NCBI GenBank assembly: GCA_963807335.1
Contig: CAWEBT010000009.1
Location: 40,398 to 104,397 of the forward strand
Direction of reading: 5' to 3'
Length of the DNA stretch: 64,000 bases
DNA from: an uncultured Actinomycetota bacterium
GTDB taxonomy: Bacteria > Actinomycetota > Actinomycetes > Propionibacteriales > Nocardioidaceae
How positions within the stretch are numbered: position 1 is the first letter of the stretch; every line of letters starts with the position of its first letter. Position numbers and translations under genes: made by a program. Below are positions 1 through 43,162 of the stretch, piece after piece. The notes beneath the pieces were generated by a model that saw nothing but the letters and a program-made list of their open reading frames with translations, searched no databases and was not told the origin of the DNA.

Positions 1-937
1 GGGAGAGTGGATCCCCTGTCGCCACCAGGGTCGTGAGCAGGGTGAGACAGTCGCCCAGCTCAGCGTCGGTCATCGGCACCGTCGGCAGGTCGTGTGCCGG
101 TGCGACGCCGGCACCTCCGGCTGGGAACTCGAACGCCACTGCTGTGTCCTCGTCGGCCGGGTCGTCCCAGGACAGCACCTTGGCGATCGCTCCCCGCCCT
201 TCGCGCACAAGTCCGAGACGCGGGTACGCGTCACTGCGTTGGCCTGGTCCCGTGACGGCGACCGTCACGGTGATCGGCAGCAGGAGGTCGACCACTCCCG
301 GCGTGGACTCCGCGCCCGTGCTGTCGAGGAACGTCTGTACGCCCTGTGCGTCGACCTTGAGCACTCGCAGGTTGTTCAGCGTGATGGCGGCATCGGGCAG
401 GGGGTGGGTCGGAGGGGCGCCCGAGACGACCTCGACGATCGTTCCGTGCCCAGCAGCCCCTGAGGCCAAGGGTCCTGCGCCTTGGTGCGACGCGACGTCA
501 CCTCCTCGGGTGGCGGTCACCGTGACGGTGACGTTTCCCTCGGTGCCGGGCCAGCGCGCCACGAACCGCGCCGAGGAGTTGCCGACCGGGATACGGACCT
601 CGTTGATTGCGGCCGTGTTGTTGGGGAACCTGTGCACGCGCGACACATAGAGGCGCCGGCCCCCGTTGAGGAAGAAGGCCCGTGCGGCGTGCGCCAGGTA
701 CGGCGTTCGACCTCCCCGTCCGATGTCCAGCGGCCGAAGGCCGCCGTACACGCGCTCGAACTCCGCATAGCTCGTGATCAGCCGTGGTTCGCAGGCTCGC
801 GGGCCGCCCTGATAGCGAACGGGGCCGAAGTGCGTGAGGCCGGCGATGCCCGTGGTGGAGGTGGCGACTCCCTGAATCGACTTCGAGCGAAAGCTGACCT
901 CTTCGACGAATACGCCTGGTGCCAGGTACTCGGGCAT
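1..937 (-). CDS. Contractile tail sheath protein, N-terminal part (partial; continues beyond left edge)
   Basis: Absent from ORF track because it is open at the window edge. Hand translation from ATG (rc of 935-937): MPEYLAPGVFVEEVSFRSKSIQGVATSTTGIAGLTHFGPV..., the canonical N-terminus of phage/eCIS sheath proteins. Starts 22 nt after the stop of the upstream ORF; GC-rich third positions. Confidence 0.85.
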   Translation of the reverse strand, partial: MPEYLAPGVFVEEVSFRSKSIQGVATSTTGIAGLTHFGPVRYQGGPRACEPRLITSYAEFERVYGGLRPLDIGRGGRTPYLAHAARAFFLNGGRRLYVSRVHRFPNNTAAINEVRIPVGNSSARFVARWPGTEGNVTVTVTATRGGDVASHQGAGPLASGAAGHGTIVEVVSGAPPTHPLPDAAITLNNLRVLKVDAQGVQTFLDSTGAESTPGVVDLLLPITVTVAVTGPGQRSDAYPRLGLVREGRGAIAKVLSWDDPADEDTAVAFEFPAGGAGVAPAHDLPTVPMTDAELGDCLTLLTTLVATGDPLS

Positions 938-959: not shown

Positions 960-1808
960 TCAATTCAGGACGACGGGGCTCGCCTGGGTGACGGTGCCCC
1001 GGGTGCAGCTCAGGGTTGTGGTGGCCTTGTCGACGTAGCCGTTCGGTGGTGTGGTCCCGTCGAGGACGGGGTCGTTGGACAGTGCCGCCACGACCTCTAC
1101 GGGCAAGTGCCTGAGTGGATCGAGGCCAAGGGTCAGCGCGTCGACCGGACTGTCGGAGGGCTGTGTGGAAGGAGCGGAGACAGTGAGGTCGACCCCCAGC
1201 GCGTCCCCAGCGGCTCGCACGAGCTCGACCGGGACCGCGCCGAGGACCACGACGTACTCGCCGTTCAGGTCGGTCTGGCCGAGCCAGGTGAGGGCGGTGG
1301 AGCCGGTCGGGCGGACGAGGATGCGGCCCCAGCACACCGGGTCACCGGTCGCCCACGTCACCCGGCCCCGGATCAGGGTGGCGCCGGCGGGCACGCCGTA
1401 ACGCACAGAGGGGAACATGACCGGACGGCACCTGCGTGGCACTGTGTTGTCCGACACCACCTGGGCCTCGGTGGGGACGGGCAGCGCTAGGCGTCGGGGG
1501 ACGAACCTTCCGTCGCGGTCGACCAGCCGGACCACGACCGTGGTCCGCAGGTCGGCCAGCGATTCTCCGAAGCTGATCGCATGGCGGGCAGACATCGTGC
1601 GGCGCAGCCGCGGCAGGCCCAGGGAATCGTCGATGCCGGCGCGGCCACGGCGCGGGCGGAAGGGCCTCGGGACGTCCTCGCTGAAGCACTCCAGGGTGGT
1701 GAGCCGACGCTCCTGCCCGGCGAGGTCGACCGGTGCGATGCCGAGCCGCAGACGTCTCACCCGCTCGGTCCAGATGGGGTCGAGGTAGACGTTCGTGGTC
1801 ACGTTCAT
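960..1808 (-). CDS. CIS-associated hypothetical protein with a carboxypeptidase-regulatory-like beta-sandwich segment
   Basis: 282-aa ORF whose start overlaps the stop of the DUF4255 gene (ATGA, 1805-1808). The segment GRVTWATGDPVCWGRILVRPTG...TDLNGEYVVVL resembles CarboxypepD_reg-type folds. Function unknown. Confidence 0.6.
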   Translation of the reverse strand: MNVTTNVYLDPIWTERVRRLRLGIAPVDLAGQERRLTTLECFSEDVPRPFRPRRGRAGIDDSLGLPRLRRTMSARHAISFGESLADLRTTVVVRLVDRDGRFVPRRLALPVPTEAQVVSDNTVPRRCRPVMFPSVRYGVPAGATLIRGRVTWATGDPVCWGRILVRPTGSTALTWLGQTDLNGEYVVVLGAVPVELVRAAGDALGVDLTVSAPSTQPSDSPVDALTLGLDPLRHLPVEVVAALSNDPVLDGTTPPNGYVDKATTTLSCTRGTVTQASPVVLN

Positions 1809-2422
1809 GAGCCACCGGCCGCCTGGCCCGCCAAGACCGGCCGAGTCCCTTGGATCTGGGTGAGCACGTCCGGCCCCGGGTCACCGTCGGTTGCGGTGAT
1901 CACCGCGATCCGGGCGAGGTAGGGGATGCTGAGGCGGAAGTCGCACGTCAGGCTCTCGAAGGTCCTCATCAGGTCGTCGGTGGCCATGTCCTCGAGATTG
2001 ACCTGCACCGACTCTCCGGGCGCCCAACCTCCGGTCGGCCAGAGCAACGGACCGCTCAGGGCTCCGATGTCGTCGAGGATCTGCATGGAGCGACCGATGA
2101 GCAAATGCTCCTCTTCGGCGTTGTCCGCCCAGGCCGTCAAGAGGTAGTGCAGGTCCACCGGGAGGTGTGCCCGGCCATCGACCGATCCGACGGCCGACCA
2201 GCTCGCCCGCATCGTCTTGTTGAAGTCGACCCGGTAGAGCAGGAGCGTGACGACCGGCACAGCCGGGGTAGAGGCTGCGTCGTCCAGGTCCTCGGTCTGG
2301 ATCAGCTTGGCGGTCGCGGTCTTGTCCTGGATGGGCTGCTGCACACCGAAGCGTGCGGTGAGGAGAGCCTCCAGGCTCTTGCCGACCGCGGCGACGCTTC
2401 GGAAGTTGGCCACGAGAGCCAC
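1805..2422 (-). CDS. DUF4255 (Pvc16/Afp16 N-terminal domain) protein
   Basis: Family signatures TLLLYRVDFNKTMR and LPVDLHYLLTAWADNAEEEHLLIGRSMQIL. Sits directly upstream of the sheath gene on the same strand. Confidence 0.85.
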   Translation of the reverse strand: MALVANFRSVAAVGKSLEALLTARFGVQQPIQDKTATAKLIQTEDLDDAASTPAVPVVTLLLYRVDFNKTMRASWSAVGSVDGRAHLPVDLHYLLTAWADNAEEEHLLIGRSMQILDDIGALSGPLLWPTGGWAPGESVQVNLEDMATDDLMRTFESLTCDFRLSIPYLARIAVITATDGDPGPDVLTQIQGTRPVLAGQAAGGS

Positions 2423-2460
2423 CCTTCGCCATGGGACGTCACGACACCGTCACCCGAGGC

Positions 2461-3297
2461 TCAGACCGCGGCGGCTCCTTGGATCGGCACGCCGAGTGGC
2501 TCGGTCCGGCGTCCCACGAACTCCCAGGGTCGGTTCAGAAAGTCGGAGAGATCCCATGGGGGGTCGATCCCGAGTTCGTTGCGCAGGAGATCGACGTACA
2601 GCTGGCAGCTCCGGCGTCCTTCGTTCCAGTTGCCCTCGGCGATGTGAGCGGCGATGAGCGCACGCTGCGCGCTGTCCCGGAAGGGTTCGATGCGGGCGGC
2701 GAGCATCGCAGCCTCGACCGCCTCGTGATGGCGGCCGCGCCGGGAGAGTGTGGGGCTCAGGGCCTCCAGCGCGTGCAGTACCCGGTGGCGCAGCCGCTCG
2801 CGCGACATGATCACCCACTCGTCGTACCAACCGGGGAGCAGCTCGAGGGCATCGAGGCTGCCTGGATGGATGTGGAGGTCGTCCTCCGTCGCCACGCCGC
2901 CCGCGACCCGACCGGCCCAGCGATCGATCGAGTCGATGTCGACGCTCACGTGCGGCGCAAGCCCGACGCACAGCTTGTCGACCTCCAGCAGGTCGACACC
3001 GGTGCCCCGCAGGCGCCAGATCGAGGAGCGCAGGTTGCCGGTCGCCCGCTCGTCGTCACCGTTGGGCCACAGGATGCCGGCAGCCCACTTTCGTTCGACG
3101 CGGCGCCGATGGAGCGCGAGTAGGACCAGCAGGCGCTTGCTGCCTTCGGGGATGCGCCCGGCAACCGAGCAGCCCTCCACCGGACTCTCGATCCGGAGGT
3201 CCCCGAGCAGGCACAGCCGACTGTGCGCGGGTATTCGCGCTCGCTGCTGTGGAGGCGACATGGACATCTGGCGTCCGATCGATTCGGCTCCCGACAA
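2461..3297 (-). CDS. Small SARP-type regulator (OmpR-like winged helix + BTAD)
   Basis: N-terminal LCLLGDLRIE...LLVLLALH...NLRSSIWRLR (trans_reg_C-like), then the BTAD-like helical domain LLPGWYDEWV...EAVEAAMLAARIEPFRDSAQRALIAAHIAEGN. The track start at 3297 is TTG; ATG at 3267 is an alternative. Confidence 0.8.
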   Translation of the reverse strand: MSGAESIGRQMSMSPPQQRARIPAHSRLCLLGDLRIESPVEGCSVAGRIPEGSKRLLVLLALHRRRVERKWAAGILWPNGDDERATGNLRSSIWRLRGTGVDLLEVDKLCVGLAPHVSVDIDSIDRWAGRVAGGVATEDDLHIHPGSLDALELLPGWYDEWVIMSRERLRHRVLHALEALSPTLSRRGRHHEAVEAAMLAARIEPFRDSAQRALIAAHIAEGNWNEGRRSCQLYVDLLRNELGIDPPWDLSDFLNRPWEFVGRRTEPLGVPIQGAAAV

Positions 3298-3311: not shown

Positions 3312-3340
3312 CGTCTACAAGGCGTCACCACAACGTCACA
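3312..3340 (-). promoter_or_regulatory. Candidate SARP box: three direct heptamers at 11-bp spacing upstream of the SARP gene
   Basis: Plus strand CGTCTAC(3312) CGTCACC(3323) CGTCACA(3334); minus strand TGTGACG-N4-GGTGACG-N4-GTAGACG. Followed by CCCTCAC-N-TTG (plus 3299-3305 gtgaggg). Confidence 0.4.
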
Positions 3341-3354
3341 CGCTGCGAACAGAC

Positions 3355-3558
3355 TCATTCCACGCAATTGGTGCGGCAGAAGTCGACCAGGAATGCGCGT
3401 ACCCGGTCTAGTCCACGCTCCACCTCCACCTCGATCTCCTCCACCTCTCCGGCGGTGTCGAAGATGTCGACCCGGGTCACGATGTGCAGCACCAGACCGG
3501 TCGGTTCGCGACTGGCACGGATGATGCAGACGCCGCGAGGTTCGGGAGCGCGGGGCAT
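3355..3558 (-). CDS. Small hypothetical protein (67 aa from ATG 3558; track ORF extends to GTG 3627)
   Basis: GC-rich third positions from MPRAPEPRGVCIIRASREPTGLVLHIVTRVDIFDTAGEVEEIEVEVERGLDRVRAFLVDFCRTNCVE. A second heptamer pair and the same CCCTCAC motif lie just upstream of ATG 3558. No family recognised. Confidence 0.35.
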   Translation of the reverse strand: MPRAPEPRGVCIIRASREPTGLVLHIVTRVDIFDTAGEVEEIEVEVERGLDRVRAFLVDFCRTNCVE

Positions 3559-3579: not shown

Positions 3580-3597
3580 CGTCACCGGGTCGTGACC
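3580..3597 (-). promoter_or_regulatory. Second heptamer pair (CGTCACC-N4-CGTGACC) with the same downstream CCCTCAC motif
   Basis: Minus strand GGTCACG-ACCC-GGTGACG-GCGAG-CCCTCACTGTTG-CTCC-ATG. Parallels the architecture at 3299-3340. Confidence 0.35.
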
Positions 3598-3710
3598 CGA
3601 CGAACTGGGGATCAGGAAAGTTCGCACGTGGATATGGGGAGTGGCGCTCGGGTAACGGCAGGGTGACGAGAGCCCGCAAACAATGGCGCAATCCGATTCC
3701 AGGAGAGGCC

Positions 3711-5192
3711 ATGACTGACAACAAGGACCAACCGGGAGACCGGCCCAGCGGCGCCCCGGGCGCCACGGGGGACGGGCAGCCTGATGGGGACGAATCCACC
3801 GACTGCATACCGCGGAGCCGTCGTGACGACTACGAGTTCACTGGGTGCGGCTGCGGCGACTGCGATTCTGCGTCTCTCGAGATCCTCTGTCGTGCCGAGG
3901 GGATCAAGGCGCGCGCGGCGTACGACGCGGCGCATACGAGTGCACCGTCCCCGGAGCTCTACGAGTCGGCGCGACTGCGCTACGCACGATCCCGCTACGC
4001 CGTGACTTCCAGGCTGACCAACCTCCAGAAGACGCTCGACGATGCCATGCACGAGATCGGCTGCCGGATCGACGACGAGGACAAGGTCGACTGTCTGACG
4101 GCTGCGTGGAAAGAGGTCCGCCGGCGCCTGCGCAAGTGCCGTCCCGACGAGTGTTGCGTCGACGACTACGAGTTTCACGCAGGATCGGAGGATGCCCAGG
4201 TCGAGGATCTCCGCGCGAGAGTGGCCCGCTACGTCAGCGTCACCGGAGCCGCCGAGTGCTGCTTCACGCGACTGGCGAAGGAGCCCGAGCTGCTGGTCGA
4301 GCGAGTCGACGCGTTGACGGCCGAGATCGCGGCGATCCATCTGGCCCTCCACCCCGACGAGGCACCGGCACCCGCACCGGCACCGGCACCGTCGACGGCG
4401 GAGCCAGCAGCCCCCGCGCCGGCCGCCCACCCGCCAGGGGGCGCCGAGGGCGCTGCTGCGTCCGAGCCCGAGCCCGAGCCGGCGAAGCCTGACTGGCAGC
4501 ACCTGTACGCCGGGGCGCTCGTCGCCGCCTGGAAGCTGAAGAACGTCTACGTGGGGTTCGACGACCCGAAGGAGTACGTGGACTGCCTGTGCCAGGCGAT
4601 GAAGGTCGCGATGGCCGGCCACCAGATCCTGGCCGAGCTGCACGGCGAACTGCGCGTCCGCGAAGCCCGCTGGGAGCAGCGCAACAAGTGCTGCCGTCGT
4701 CACCGGGAGCACGCCGCCAACGAGATCATCTCCGGCTACGTCCGGTGCCTGCGAGAGGGGCTGGAGCCGGAGGAGCCCGAGGACACCGATGACGACTGTG
4801 ACGACGACTGCGACGACGACAACCATCACCACACCCCCCGACCCGGCCGCGATCGTAGGCGCCCACGGCGGCGTCGCGACTACGACGACGATGTCGACGT
4901 TCGCGTCCGGGTCGACGTGGACATCGACGACGAGGACGATGACCACCGGCACGGTGGGCACCGGCGCGACCACCACGGTGATGACCACAGGCATGGCGAT
5001 GGCCATGGACGTGGCGACGACGACCGGCGCGGAGACGACGACGGTTATGACGAGGACGATTACGACGAGGACGAGGACATCGATGAGGACGACGAGCCGA
5101 GCGAGAAGCGTCCTCGCAGGGCATCTCGTCCCGCTCCGGCCCGCAAGCGGGCAGCAGCGAAGCCGAAGAGCGGCCGCACGACCCGACGCTGA
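3711..5192 (+). CDS. Orphan Cys-rich helical protein with an Ala/Pro linker and an extreme Asp/His/Arg low-complexity C-terminal tail
   Basis: ATG 3711 preceded by aggagag. Third positions are GC-rich but with more A/T-ending codons than neighbours. About 19 Cys by hand count (CGCGDC, ECC, ECC, CLC, KCC). APAPAPAPAP linker. Tail DDDCDDDCDDDNHHH...RDRRRPRRRRDYDDDVDVRVRVDVDIDDEDDDHRHGGHRRDHHGDDHRHGDGHGRGDDD. No signal peptide. No family recognised. Confidence 0.75.
   Translation: MTDNKDQPGDRPSGAPGATGDGQPDGDESTDCIPRSRRDDYEFTGCGCGDCDSASLEILCRAEGIKARAAYDAAHTSAPSPELYESARLRYARSRYAVTSRLTNLQKTLDDAMHEIGCRIDDEDKVDCLTAAWKEVRRRLRKCRPDECCVDDYEFHAGSEDAQVEDLRARVARYVSVTGAAECCFTRLAKEPELLVERVDALTAEIAAIHLALHPDEAPAPAPAPAPSTAEPAAPAPAAHPPGGAEGAAASEPEPEPAKPDWQHLYAGALVAAWKLKNVYVGFDDPKEYVDCLCQAMKVAMAGHQILAELHGELRVREARWEQRNKCCRRHREHAANEIISGYVRCLREGLEPEEPEDTDDDCDDDCDDDNHHHTPRPGRDRRRPRRRRDYDDDVDVRVRVDVDIDDEDDDHRHGGHRRDHHGDDHRHGDGHGRGDDDRRGDDDGYDEDDYDEDEDIDEDDEPSEKRPRRASRPAPARKRAAAKPKSGRTTRR
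4786..5100 (+). repeat. GAC/CAC/CGN-rich low-complexity coding tract (Asp/His/Arg tail)
   Basis: Runs of gac gac gac tg(t/c), cac cac, cgg/cgc codons. These generate spurious Thr-rich and Arg-rich ORFs in the other frames (for example 4789..5250). Confidence 0.7.
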
Positions 5193-5204
5193 GGGGGAAA
5201 TGTC

Positions 5205-7310
5205 ATGCCGGGGAAGAAGGAAGGCAACGTCGAGGCTCCCTTCCGGGTGATGACGGCGAACGTCCAGTCGTTCCCTGTCCGGGCGATCACGCCGGGCGAG
5301 GCGCTCGAAGACCTCAGGAAGAACGCCGCCGACGCAGACCTGGTCTTCCTTCAGGAGATCGTTGCCCGATACCGCCCATTGGTGAGCGAGTCGTTCGCGG
5401 CGCCCGACTGGGAGGTCTACTACGGCAAGACCGACAACCACGAGCCCATCGCCTTTCGTACCGACCTCTTCTCGAAGGTCGCGGGCCAGGCGATCCAGGT
5501 CCATCCCGCCAACTCGCTGCACGACCGGCGGTACACCACTCACTTGCGCCTGCGCTACAAGCCGCTCGGCACGGACCTGCATGCGACCAACCTCCACCTG
5601 GTCGCCGGGGCCTACAACGCTCCGCACATGGACGACGACGAGGAGCGCAAGCGCGAGTGGGACACCGGGATCGAGATCCATCGCGATTTCATCGAGAGTC
5701 TCGTTCAGACCCGGCTCCCGGTGGTGGGTGGCGGTGACTACAACCGCCAGCTCAGGCAGTGCAAGGCGCTCGGCAGCGAGATCGACGGTCGGCGTGTCCG
5801 GTACGCCGTGGACAAGGGCTCGATCGACCTGCTCTGGTTCATCGACGGAGACGATGCTGCCTGGGATGTCCGGTCCACGAAGGTCTACCCCGGCCGCCGA
5901 TGGAGCAACCCCGAACGGCACAGCGACCACAGTGCTCGGTCGGCGACGGTCCTTCTGGGCGATGTCGAGGCCCCGATCGAGGTGCCGAAGCATCCGCCGT
6001 TCCAGCTCACGGAGTTCGGTGACAAGACGCCGAAGAGGATGGACTGGAAGACGCGGGCGGCTCTGGAGGTGGCGCAGCGAAGACTCGGCTACCCGCTCAC
6101 CATCGTCCAAGGTTGCTACAACCAGGGCGCTGTCTCCGCTTCCGCGGGGACGCACGACGGAGGGGGCGTCGTCGACCTCATCGCCTATGACCGGGAACGC
6201 AAGGTTCGGGTGCTTCGCGAGATCGGTTTCGCTGCGTGGTACCGGCCGACGATCAAAGGTCTGTGGGGCGAGCACATCCACGCGGTCCTCATCGACCATG
6301 GGCGCCTGGCCTCGTCCGCAGCCCGTCAGGTCGACTCCTATCGACGCGGCCGGGATGGCCTCAAGGGCGACCGTTCCGATCCGACGTGGCGTCCCAAGCC
6401 CATCTCGGTGTTCGTCTATCCGCCACCGGCGGCTCCGTCGGGGACGCCGTCCGGTCCGCCTCCCGACGTGGTCCAACCGACTTCCGTGCCGTTCCCCCCA
6501 CGCCGCACTCTGGACGGCGTCGACACCAGCCACTACCAGGGTGGCCGGATCGACGTGAAGGCGGCTCAGGCTGCCGGCCTGAAGTTCTGGTACCTCAAGA
6601 CGACCGAGGGCGACTCCATCGTGGATCGCACCTACAAGTCCCGGATCAGACAGGCGAGGCAAGCGGGTGTACCGGTCGGCTCGTACCACTTCGCGCGACC
6701 GGATCTGGGTGACGCCGGGCGGGAGGCGCTGTTCTTCCTGTCCAATGCGGACATCAGGGCCGGCGACATGATCCCGATGCTCGATCTGGAGTCTTTGGAG
6801 GGGCTCTCACCAACCCAGGTGACGTCATGGGCGGGGACTTGGGTGGCCACGGTCACCAAGGAGCTGACCGCGAAGGGGCTCTCGGCGAAGCCCATCATCT
6901 ACACCCGGTTCGACCTCGGCAGCGGCTTCGGGTGCTACCTCTGGGTGGCGCGATACAGCAACGACAAGCTCGCTCCCCGGATCCCCAAGCCGTGGCGCAA
7001 GGCGGTGATCTGGCAGCACTCCGACGGCCGGTACGGACCGATCAAGCACGTCCCGGGGTTCGGGGCGGTCGATGTGAACGCGCTGCACCCCGACATTCCA
7101 CTGTCCGCCTTGCGGATCAGGCGGGTGGGGGTGGCTCCGAGCCCTGGCTCGCCTGTTCCTCCCACCCGGCCGGGCCGGCCGCACCGACCCCCGGATCAGG
7201 GCGGAGGGCCCAGGCCCCAGGGCAACCTCGGCCTCGAGGCGGTGCTCGACGAGCTGCGCGCCGGTGTGAAGTCCATGCAGTCCGCCCTCGACAAGCTCCC
7301 GAAGAGGTAA
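5205..7310 (+). CDS. Three-domain enzyme: N-terminal endonuclease/exonuclease/phosphatase (EEP), central LAS/M15-like Zn-peptidase-like domain, C-terminal GH25 muramidase
   Basis: EEP: FRVMTANVQSF...LVFLQEI...GGGDYN...SDHSA. Centre: SAGTHDGGGVVDL ... WGEHIHAV (H-x-D and HxH-type motifs). GH25: LDGVDTSHYQGGRIDVKAAQAAGLKFWYLKTTEGDSIVDRTYKSRIRQARQAGVPVGSYHFARP. No signal peptide. Starts 12 nt after the upstream stop, with gggggaa as RBS. Confidence 0.85.
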   Translation: MPGKKEGNVEAPFRVMTANVQSFPVRAITPGEALEDLRKNAADADLVFLQEIVARYRPLVSESFAAPDWEVYYGKTDNHEPIAFRTDLFSKVAGQAIQVHPANSLHDRRYTTHLRLRYKPLGTDLHATNLHLVAGAYNAPHMDDDEERKREWDTGIEIHRDFIESLVQTRLPVVGGGDYNRQLRQCKALGSEIDGRRVRYAVDKGSIDLLWFIDGDDAAWDVRSTKVYPGRRWSNPERHSDHSARSATVLLGDVEAPIEVPKHPPFQLTEFGDKTPKRMDWKTRAALEVAQRRLGYPLTIVQGCYNQGAVSASAGTHDGGGVVDLIAYDRERKVRVLREIGFAAWYRPTIKGLWGEHIHAVLIDHGRLASSAARQVDSYRRGRDGLKGDRSDPTWRPKPISVFVYPPPAAPSGTPSGPPPDVVQPTSVPFPPRRTLDGVDTSHYQGGRIDVKAAQAAGLKFWYLKTTEGDSIVDRTYKSRIRQARQAGVPVGSYHFARPDLGDAGREALFFLSNADIRAGDMIPMLDLESLEGLSPTQVTSWAGTWVATVTKELTAKGLSAKPIIYTRFDLGSGFGCYLWVARYSNDKLAPRIPKPWRKAVIWQHSDGRYGPIKHVPGFGAVDVNALHPDIPLSALRIRRVGVAPSPGSPVPPTRPGRPHRPPDQGGGPRPQGNLGLEAVLDELRAGVKSMQSALDKLPKR

Positions 7311-43058: not shown

Positions 43059-43162
43059 GCCACACATTCTGCACCCCATTTCCCGTCGAAACCTGCTTTG
43101 ACTCGGGCAATGCGGCGGGTGACACTGATGTGACTCAGTCATCGCCGGCCCGGAGGAGCCCC

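Follow-up and report, generated by a model that had tools for sequence, protein, structure and literature searches.

A cysteine-rich protein family of predicted helical fold accompanies contractile injection system gene clusters in actinobacteria

Contractile injection systems (CIS) are widespread among actinobacteria, in which they have been linked to programmed cell death and development. To our knowledge, their non-core parts are poorly known: neither a canonical tape measure nor fibres have been described for them, and the trigger of their firing is unknown. In the extracellular CIS (eCIS) loci of lineage II, Chen et al. (2019; PMC6899500) reported unnamed, domain-less "subtype-specific conserved genes", and the canonical Afp14 was reported to be absent from that lineage (PMC6899500). 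An accessory protein of the CIS of Streptomyces coelicolor is CisA (SCO4242), a membrane adaptor with a transmembrane (TM) segment and a sugar-binding domain whose gene lies after the baseplate genes (PMC12237407). Here we analysed a stretch of 64,000 nucleotides (the window) from an uncultured actinobacterium of the Nocardioidaceae (contig CAWEBT010000009.1), in which a gene encoding a Cys-rich protein of 493 amino acids, the target of this study, is located on the + strand (3711..5192) at the outer edge of a CIS island. Judging from sequence comparisons, the target is a member of an uncharacterised, actinobacteria-restricted protein family, and this family is a fixed accessory of at least two types of CIS cluster.

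The target gene is real. Its open reading frame (ORF), of 493 codons plus the stop, ends at 5192 and could start on the + strand either at 3663 (GTG) or at 3711 (ATG), the ATG being preferred because the GTG sits inside a predicted promoter site described below. The ATG is preceded by a ribosome-binding site (AGGAGAGG, 3701-3708), the GC content of the three codon positions (0.75/0.50/0.82, in a genome of roughly 68% GC) shows a coding pattern, and a word-indexed search identified a 57%-identical homologue (P0001) in the same genomic context. On the basis of the ribosome-binding site, the codon-position GC and the homologues, a non-coding artefact was rejected, and an opposite-strand ORF of 1025 amino acids (3612-6689) was discarded as an artefact of high GC. 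The first-pass annotation of this gene, made by a model from the letters of the window, had noticed more A/T-ending codons than in the neighbours and had taken them as a hint of foreign origin. The GC content at third positions (GC3) of the target (0.82) is indeed marginally below that of the adjacent genes of the CIS island (0.83-0.86), and other, mostly metabolic, genes of the window reach 0.87-0.95. A low GC3 is therefore common to the whole island and the codon signal is not specific to the target gene, so the hint of foreign origin is not supported. TTA (bldA-dependent) codons were absent from the island genes.

An exhaustive HMMER search of 1.84 billion representatives, using as query a two-sequence profile of the structured region, retrieved 149 family representatives at E<1e-3, 105 at E<1e-10 and 20 at E<1e-30, and the protein can no longer be called an orphan as it was at first. 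Family proteins are mostly of 280-470 amino acids and match the profile in both halves. Among the matches listed, the genera represented by named members are Kutzneria, Actinoplanes, Streptomyces, Kribbella, Microlunatus, Pseudonocardia and Terrabacter; the named protein nearest to the target is P0004, of Terrabacter sp. Soil810. All named members are annotated as hypothetical except P0160 (Streptomyces sp. SAI-126), labelled [quoted passage not shown] in what looks like a mis-annotation driven by coiled coils. A public fragment of 97 amino acids, P0037, reproduces over 80 residues the N-terminus of the target with one substitution and then changes frame; this near-identity indicates that a very close relative of the window's organism is present in public data. 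No match to the target was obtained in Pfam, PHROGs, NCBIfam or the PDB sequences, in agreement with the first-pass statement that no family was recognisable. Comparison of the family profile with the PDB sequences and weak-match Pfam scans of 33 members gave coiled-coil noise only, and no homologue turned up when 50,697 phage records and 72,556 plasmids were screened by tblastn. Scanning a genome collection with clade-specific peptides gave no match, and a tighter alignment scan of the same collection gave only 6 loci. Two known classes were tried and rejected: a phage tail protein, as neither a phage-genome homologue by tblastn nor a PHROG match was found, and an eCIS effector, as PF13699 (eCIS_core, DUF4157) was not detected and neither the target nor the 33 members had any Pfam match.

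The contexts of the related loci were read within 10 kb of flank each, which provided 16 non-redundant loci in addition to the window. In 15 of these 16 loci, as in the window, CIS genes adjoin the family gene; the co-occurrence with DUF4255 and sheath genes, whose examination had been proposed in the first-pass annotation, was thus strongly positive. Two architectures were distinguished. Type A comprises the window and 11 loci (L001/L002, L003/L008, L004-L007, L009-L012 and L018) and has the family gene divergent from a Pvc16_N-sheath operon, whose order on the - strand is Phage_base_V, Phage_GPD, a gene of roughly 60 codons, CIS_tube, gp19, sheath, gp19, sheath, a gene for a protein of 250-296 amino acids and Pvc16_N. 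The gap from Pvc16_N to the + strand family gene, measured in L003-L007, is 123-136 bp. In type B (L016, L017 and L019) the operon begins with the family gene, the stop codon of which overlaps the start of the sheath gene (TGATG); a BTAD gene and a small ORF are divergent from the family gene. The sheath gene is followed there by the tube gene, two unknown genes, Pvc16_N, an AAA ATPase gene, a small gene (56-57 amino acids) and then an eCIS_core toxin gene, which two of the three loci carry on the opposite strand. In L014 the family gene lies beside PAAR-like DUF4280 and DUF6519 genes. BTAD homologues adjoin the family gene in 11 related loci (counting L001/L002 once).

A direct repeat, GYRAC-N6-GTGAC, with a periodicity of 11 nt was identified 5' of the family gene in 14 of the 16 loci, covering both architectures, at a distance of 43-49 nt from the start codon in eight loci (full range 29-107 nt). 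Across loci, a −10-like hexamer (AACAAT, GACAAT, GATACT and similar) comes 10-11 nt after the site, and the divergent intergenic regions carry an inverted pair of sites; in most type A loci a mirrored site faces Pvc16_N. In the window, the site GTAACGGCAGGGTGAC (3652..3667, + strand) faces the target 43 nt before its ATG, and the hexamer AACAAT (3679..3684, + strand) comes 11 nt after it, a spacing conserved across loci. Two more sites on the - strand are placed upstream of the BTAD gene (3324..3339) and of the Pvc16_N-sheath operon (2438..2453). The pattern has 4 matches in the window versus 1.64 expected, three of them in promoter regions of the island; the fourth exact match, GTGACACTGATGTGAC (43119-43134, + strand), is far from the island and, given the number expected by chance, is probably fortuitous. 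A variant with one mismatch, GTCACGACCCGGTGAC (3581..3596, - strand), read from the sequence, faces a small ORF located between the BTAD gene and the target. As this direct-repeat site is shared, the target very probably belongs to the same predicted regulon as the CIS operons and the BTAD gene.

Seven type A loci have moreover an internal site on the - strand, ahead of the baseplate genes and upstream of the gene of roughly 60 codons and the Phage_GPD gene (L004 2301-2316, L005 2326-2341, L006 2217-2232, L009 2672-2687, L010 2676-2691, L011 2289-2304 and L012 2079-2094), which suggests an internal promoter for the baseplate genes.

Promoters activated by Streptomyces antibiotic regulatory proteins (SARP) in Streptomyces consist of direct repeats with an 11-nt periodicity next to a −10 element. 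The sites found here resemble them in having pentamers repeated at a spacing of 11 nt ahead of a −10-like hexamer, in lacking a −35 and in the adjacent BTAD genes; neither a sigma-70 consensus promoter nor a −35 consensus was found in the upstream region of the target. They differ from SARP promoters in that they are predicted sites, that the repeat sequence, GYGAC, is their own, and that the BTAD proteins have no detected OmpR-type DNA-binding domain, Trans_reg_C having been undetected in them by Pfam even at E<=1.

The first-pass annotation had counted about 19 Cys in the target, with the motifs CGCGDC, ECC, ECC, KCC and CLC; the 493-residue product contains all these motifs and exactly 19 Cys (residues 32, 46, 48, 51, 60, 118, 128, 143, 148, 149, 183, 184, 292, 294, 327, 328, 346, 363 and 367), that is a content of 3.9% versus 0.3-1.4% in the neighbouring proteins. 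Within the clusters, Cys-richness is unique to the family protein. Cys is present in at least 25% of the members at 16 alignment columns, and 12 of the 17 core Cys of the target fall in family-conserved Cys columns. Conservation of the Cys pattern, also raised in the first-pass annotation, was therefore found for most of the core but not for the tail, whose Cys 363 and 367 and His runs are not conserved. In the target's clade the near-invariant Cys 319 is replaced by Ala, and residue 327 is a new Cys.

When co-occurrence of Cys was expressed as phi, with the members that have both, neither or one of the two Cys (discordant) counted in that order, five pairs of columns were found to be coupled: 51-294 (phi 0.84; 111/16/5), 149-184 (0.83; 77/45/11), 153-299 (0.82; 97/28/9), 143-328 (0.81; 130/4/2) and 128-347 (0.54; 55/46/31). 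The target fits this pair rule, since it lacks both 153 and 299. Gains and losses were then traced by Fitch parsimony on a neighbour-joining tree of 285 branches, built without the Cys columns. Changes on the same branch and in the same direction numbered 11 for 149-184, 10 for 128-347, 7 for both 153-299 and 51-294, and 4 for 143-328, against a chance expectation that we estimate at about 0.5 over the 285 branches. Most of the coupled pairs join the N-half of the protein to its C-half, and the two halves together have at most 16 such Cys. As Cys are gained and lost as independent pairs, disulfides or thiol pairs are expected rather than metal sites with three or four ligands, and the core Cys look like disulfides or thiol switches and not like a metal cluster. 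A Zn-finger, ZAS or Fe-S (Wbl-like) Cys protein was rejected on the same ground and for lack of any family match.

AlphaFold2 models were built on an alignment of 143 sequences for the target, over residues 28-360, and for a compact member of the family, P0008. Mean confidence was high for both (predicted local distance difference test, pLDDT, 89.1 and 93.8; predicted template-modelling score, pTM, 0.81 and 0.84, respectively) and both models are all-helical, as the first-pass annotation had predicted for the structured part; P0008 has one helix of 69 residues (about 10 nm if straight) plus shorter ones. The predicted fold of the family is an acidic all-helical bundle. The N-half of the bundle in the target (residues 48-213; 3852..4349, + strand) is modelled with pLDDT above 90, consists of helices 53-74, 81-119, 123-143, 164-189 and 191-213, and carries conserved Cys columns, with Cys at 48, 51, 60, 118, 128, 143, 148, 149, 183 and 184. 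The C-half (residues 262-348; 4494..4754, + strand) is predicted to contain helices 262-277, 286-333 and 335-348, Cys at 292, 294, 327, 328 and 346, and the conserved motif LYA.ALVA...WxGF....YVDCLC. Foldseek searches, also proposed in the first-pass annotation, were run three times with the two models, the target being searched over the modelled residues 28-360; they gave no relative in PDB or BFVD, with no match below E 0.03 and all template-modelling scores (TM-scores) <0.3, the matches being only generic long helical bundles.

The regions outside the bundle are variable. The acidic N-terminal region of the target (residues 1-47; 3711..3851, + strand) has an isoelectric point (pI) of 4.1, a pLDDT of 63-79 in its modelled part (28-47) and is probably disordered; its length goes from 0 to 66 amino acids across the family. 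No TM-like segment was found in the target (maximum Kyte-Doolittle 19-residue score 1.19) and this, with the acidic N-terminus, bears out the first-pass statement that neither signal peptide nor TM segment is present. The AP/PEPEPEP linker mentioned there was also confirmed: it is an AP/PE-rich, flexible segment between the two halves (residues 214-261; 4350..4493, + strand; pLDDT 55-76) with 6-nt tandem repeats in its DNA. This linker is a clade-specific expansion, as the segment in the columns for residues 205-262 measures 57-68 amino acids in the target's clade versus a family median of 17. The hypervariable, low-complexity tail (residues 349-493; 4755..5189, + strand) consists of 115 acidic, His-containing residues (pI 4.2, 53 Asp plus Glu, 11 His) followed by 30 basic ones (pI 12); the first reading had rightly described an Asp/His/Arg tract with a basic end but had estimated it at about 110 residues instead of 145. 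Tails of the family are of 4-174 amino acids (Asp 15%, Gly 14%, Arg 12%, Pro 11%, Glu 10%, His 6%). In-frame tandem repeats with periods of 6, 9, 12, 15 and 18 nt occur at 4361-4391, 4462-4480, 4787-4820 and 5034-5096 of the window. Because the DNA of the tail carries short tandem repeats (9- to 18-nt), growth by replication slippage is suggested for it, and the same origin would fit the linker.

Putting these data together we infer, with somewhat more confidence than doubt, that the family is a dedicated, non-enzymatic accessory subunit of CIS whose halves are stapled or switched by thiol pairs. The non-enzymatic character is proposed because no catalytic-type motif was found among the conserved family residues, which are Cys, Leu, Ala, Arg, Tyr, Trp, Gly and Phe. 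The protein would be produced along with sheath and tube and would associate with the particle as an assembly or adaptor subunit, and its Cys pairs would act as disulfide staples or as a thiol switch locking the two halves under oxidising conditions, for example during stress or after lysis. The Asp/His/Arg tail of the target copy would be a lineage-specific appendage generated by slippage and not the conserved function, although it may bind a metal or a partner.

Several points weigh against this proposal. Membership in the particle is deduced from gene positions, and the pairing of Cys from co-variation of sequences; structural disulfides are, besides, unusual in the reducing cytoplasm of actinobacteria. 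The BTAD protein is only assumed to bind the repeat site and its DNA-binding domain was not detected by Pfam. L015, a short contig with two BTAD genes, has no recognisable CIS gene, and in some type A loci the family gene lies next to toxin genes, a position also compatible with cargo. In a bolder version, which we consider rather unlikely, the family would be a thiol/disulfide switch through which assembly or firing of cytoplasmic CIS responds to the redox state of the cell. The two halves of the bundle would be unlinked in the reducing cytoplasm, oxidative or envelope stress would close up to eight Cys pairs and lock the bundle, and the locked bundle would license, or block, contraction of the sheath. 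If this were true, such a switch would provide the stress trigger that has been missing from accounts of CIS-mediated cell death in filamentous actinobacteria.

Other explanations were weighed against the same data. The family protein might be a redox- or metal-sensing regulator that senses thiol oxidation and modulates the BTAD activator or the firing of CIS without being part of the particle. Its gene and the structural operon are transcribed away from each other, the gene adjoins a BTAD gene and a conserved small ORF in many loci, the many coupled Cys of the protein could serve as a switch, and Streptomyces CIS fire under stress (PMC10066040). However, the core is acidic (median pI 5.2 across the family) and no DNA-binding domain was found, so that a DNA-binding regulator was rejected. 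In addition, part of the loci have no adjacent BTAD gene, and in type B the family gene is translationally coupled to the gene of a very abundant protein, the sheath. We therefore regard a regulator as unlikely. A similarly low probability is given to a conserved cargo or cargo adaptor of CIS, either a slender bundle in the lumen of the tube or a link between downstream enzymes or toxins and the particle. The type A gene lies at the payload end, being followed by eCIS_core toxins in L004 and L018 and by signal-less enzymes in other cases (the GH25 protein in the window, an S8 protease in L001), the N-terminal leader is variable and probably disordered, and pairs of adaptor and effector are known for Streptomyces CIS (PMC13277306). 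But the genes downstream are often unrelated to toxins, no toxin-like motif was found, and the divergence resembles that of structural proteins, identity between the window and Kutzneria being 33% for the family protein and 37-41% for Pvc16_N, sheath and the 282-residue protein. In type B, moreover, the gene heads the sheath operon and the toxin genes are at the far end. The coupling to sheath together with this distant position of the toxin genes is the strongest argument against a pure regulator or a pure cargo. As to the CIS cargo proposed in the first-pass annotation, the link to CIS is real and the cargo role is weakened.

Metal or Fe-S binding was also among the roles raised in the first-pass annotation, and the family protein might be a metalloprotein whose main function is to bind Zn, Ni or Fe-S through its Cys clusters and its His/Asp tail. 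CxxC and CxC motifs are present and several tails of the family have CGCGHGH or HHxH runs, but tails are not conserved and many members are almost without one, no match to any metal-binding family was obtained, and the Cys columns change as pairs and not in sets of four ligands. Metal or Fe-S binding by the core Cys is thus not favoured, and we find this explanation quite doubtful. Finally, the 12 nt that separate the target from the gene of the 701-residue GH25 protein, and the 23 nt from P0001 to the S8 protease gene in L001, could point to a role as chaperone or immunity partner for the cell-wall hydrolase encoded next to it. Such an enzyme is missing downstream of most family members, and it differs even inside the target's own clade, which makes this role highly improbable.

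The CIS island in the window is on the - strand from its left end up to the target. The 5' part of a CIS sheath gene (1..937), which runs off the left end of the window, was identified by tblastn to the sheath of L003 (41% identity, E 3e-37, over 128-937). It is followed by a gene for a 282-residue CIS-cluster protein (960..1808), which has syntenic homologues in all type A loci and no Pfam match, and by the Pvc16_N (DUF4255) cap/terminator gene (1805..2422; Pfam E 1.9e-21). Next is the gene of a SARP-like regulator with a BTAD domain (2461..3297; Pfam E 5e-11), whose start codon is uncertain, and then the small ORF of 67 codons (3355..3558), divergent from the target, with a 60%-identical counterpart in L001 and homologues in L016, L017 and L019. 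This small ORF (L001 9652-9855; L016 about 1500-1760, - strand; L017 6422-6706; L019 6018-6299) is kept between the BTAD and the Cys-rich genes throughout type B (three loci) and in the clade of the window. Its product, of 67-94 amino acids, has the motif G[IV]C[IV][IV]R...L[LVM][IL]...L[DN][IV]...SGE, lacks a Pfam match and may act as partner to the regulator.

On the other side of the target, after a gap of 12 nt, the gene of the 701-residue protein (5205..7310, + strand), with a GH25 muramidase domain at residues 439-608, is probably co-transcribed with it, and ordinary metabolic genes are found beyond. The genes 3' of the family gene vary among loci (DUF309, amine oxidase plus eCIS_core toxin, BTAD, S8 protease or GH25). 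A slot 12-23 nt 3' of the Cys-rich gene contains differing large enzymes with no obvious signal peptide, namely the 701-residue protein in the window, with a weak EEP-like N-terminus (E 0.038), and an S8 protease of 763 amino acids in L001 (11488-13779); these enzymes are candidate variable payloads of CIS. The neighbourhood of L015 (8079-13894, Pseudonocardia lacus) is unusual and was seen in no other locus: downstream of the family gene and two BTAD genes lie genes for two dynamin-like GTPases, GrpE and HSP70. In L013 (9990-10390), from a metagenome-assembled genome, a decayed and frameshifted C-terminal fragment of a family gene lies by an integrase remnant with no CIS genes nearby, which looks like a relic of cluster loss or rearrangement.

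In the literature searched we found no Cys-rich protein described as an accessory of CIS and no report of SARP sites in CIS loci, and the family was compared with the nearest described systems. Long helical bundles with Cys pairs, gated by disulfides, are known among α-pore-forming toxins of the ClyA type. AhlC, YaxA and PaxB were among the weak Foldseek matches but were not significant (E>0.4, TM-score <0.3), and the family, unlike these toxins, has no hydrophobic segment for membrane insertion. Between two helices of the C-half the family has a conserved W-x-G-F turn (residues 280-283 of the target, where it reads YVGF; window 4548-4559); of 116 sequences, 89 have the W and 101 the G. This turn is reminiscent of the WxG one in substrates of type VII secretion, but size and architecture differ, and no YxxxD/E was seen. 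A WXG100 substrate was rejected, EspB and PE/PPE structures being absent from the best 50 Foldseek matches. Tape measure proteins (TMP) and TMP-related effectors (Afp14; Tme, PMC11126660; Sle1, PMC13277306) are, like the family, long helical proteins of CIS, and the top Foldseek matches in BFVD include TMP, only at E 0.3-2. In contrast to them, the family gene is not located between tube and baseplate genes, and its product has neither TM helices nor an eCIS_core partner domain; instead of an extended ruler, the model is a compact bundle folded back on itself, whose halves would be tied by coevolving Cys pairs. An Afp14-like tape measure was rejected, as the gene is at the cap/sheath end and the model is a folded bundle (pTM 0.81-0.84).

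With CisA the family shares being a lineage-specific, non-core accessory at the edge of an actinobacterial CIS cluster. It differs in lacking a TM segment, in being all-helical and Cys-rich and in its position at the cap/sheath end, and no homology between them was detected. Being based on domains, the survey of Geller et al. (2021; PMC8213781) was bound to miss the family. The accessory family defined here is conserved and present in two CIS architectures; it matches no Pfam model, has no relative detected by fold, and offers to CIS researchers a candidate accessory gene, a candidate operator of the CIS regulon and predicted Cys pairs bridging the halves of the bundle. The family may be one of the groups of subtype-specific conserved genes of Chen et al. 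(2019; PMC6899500), which likewise have no recognisable domain, are conserved in most loci of a CIS subtype and have no assigned function. Those groups were given no sequence description that would allow a check, whereas the present family is defined, modelled and followed through two architectures, with a promoter motif that it has in common with the CIS operons.

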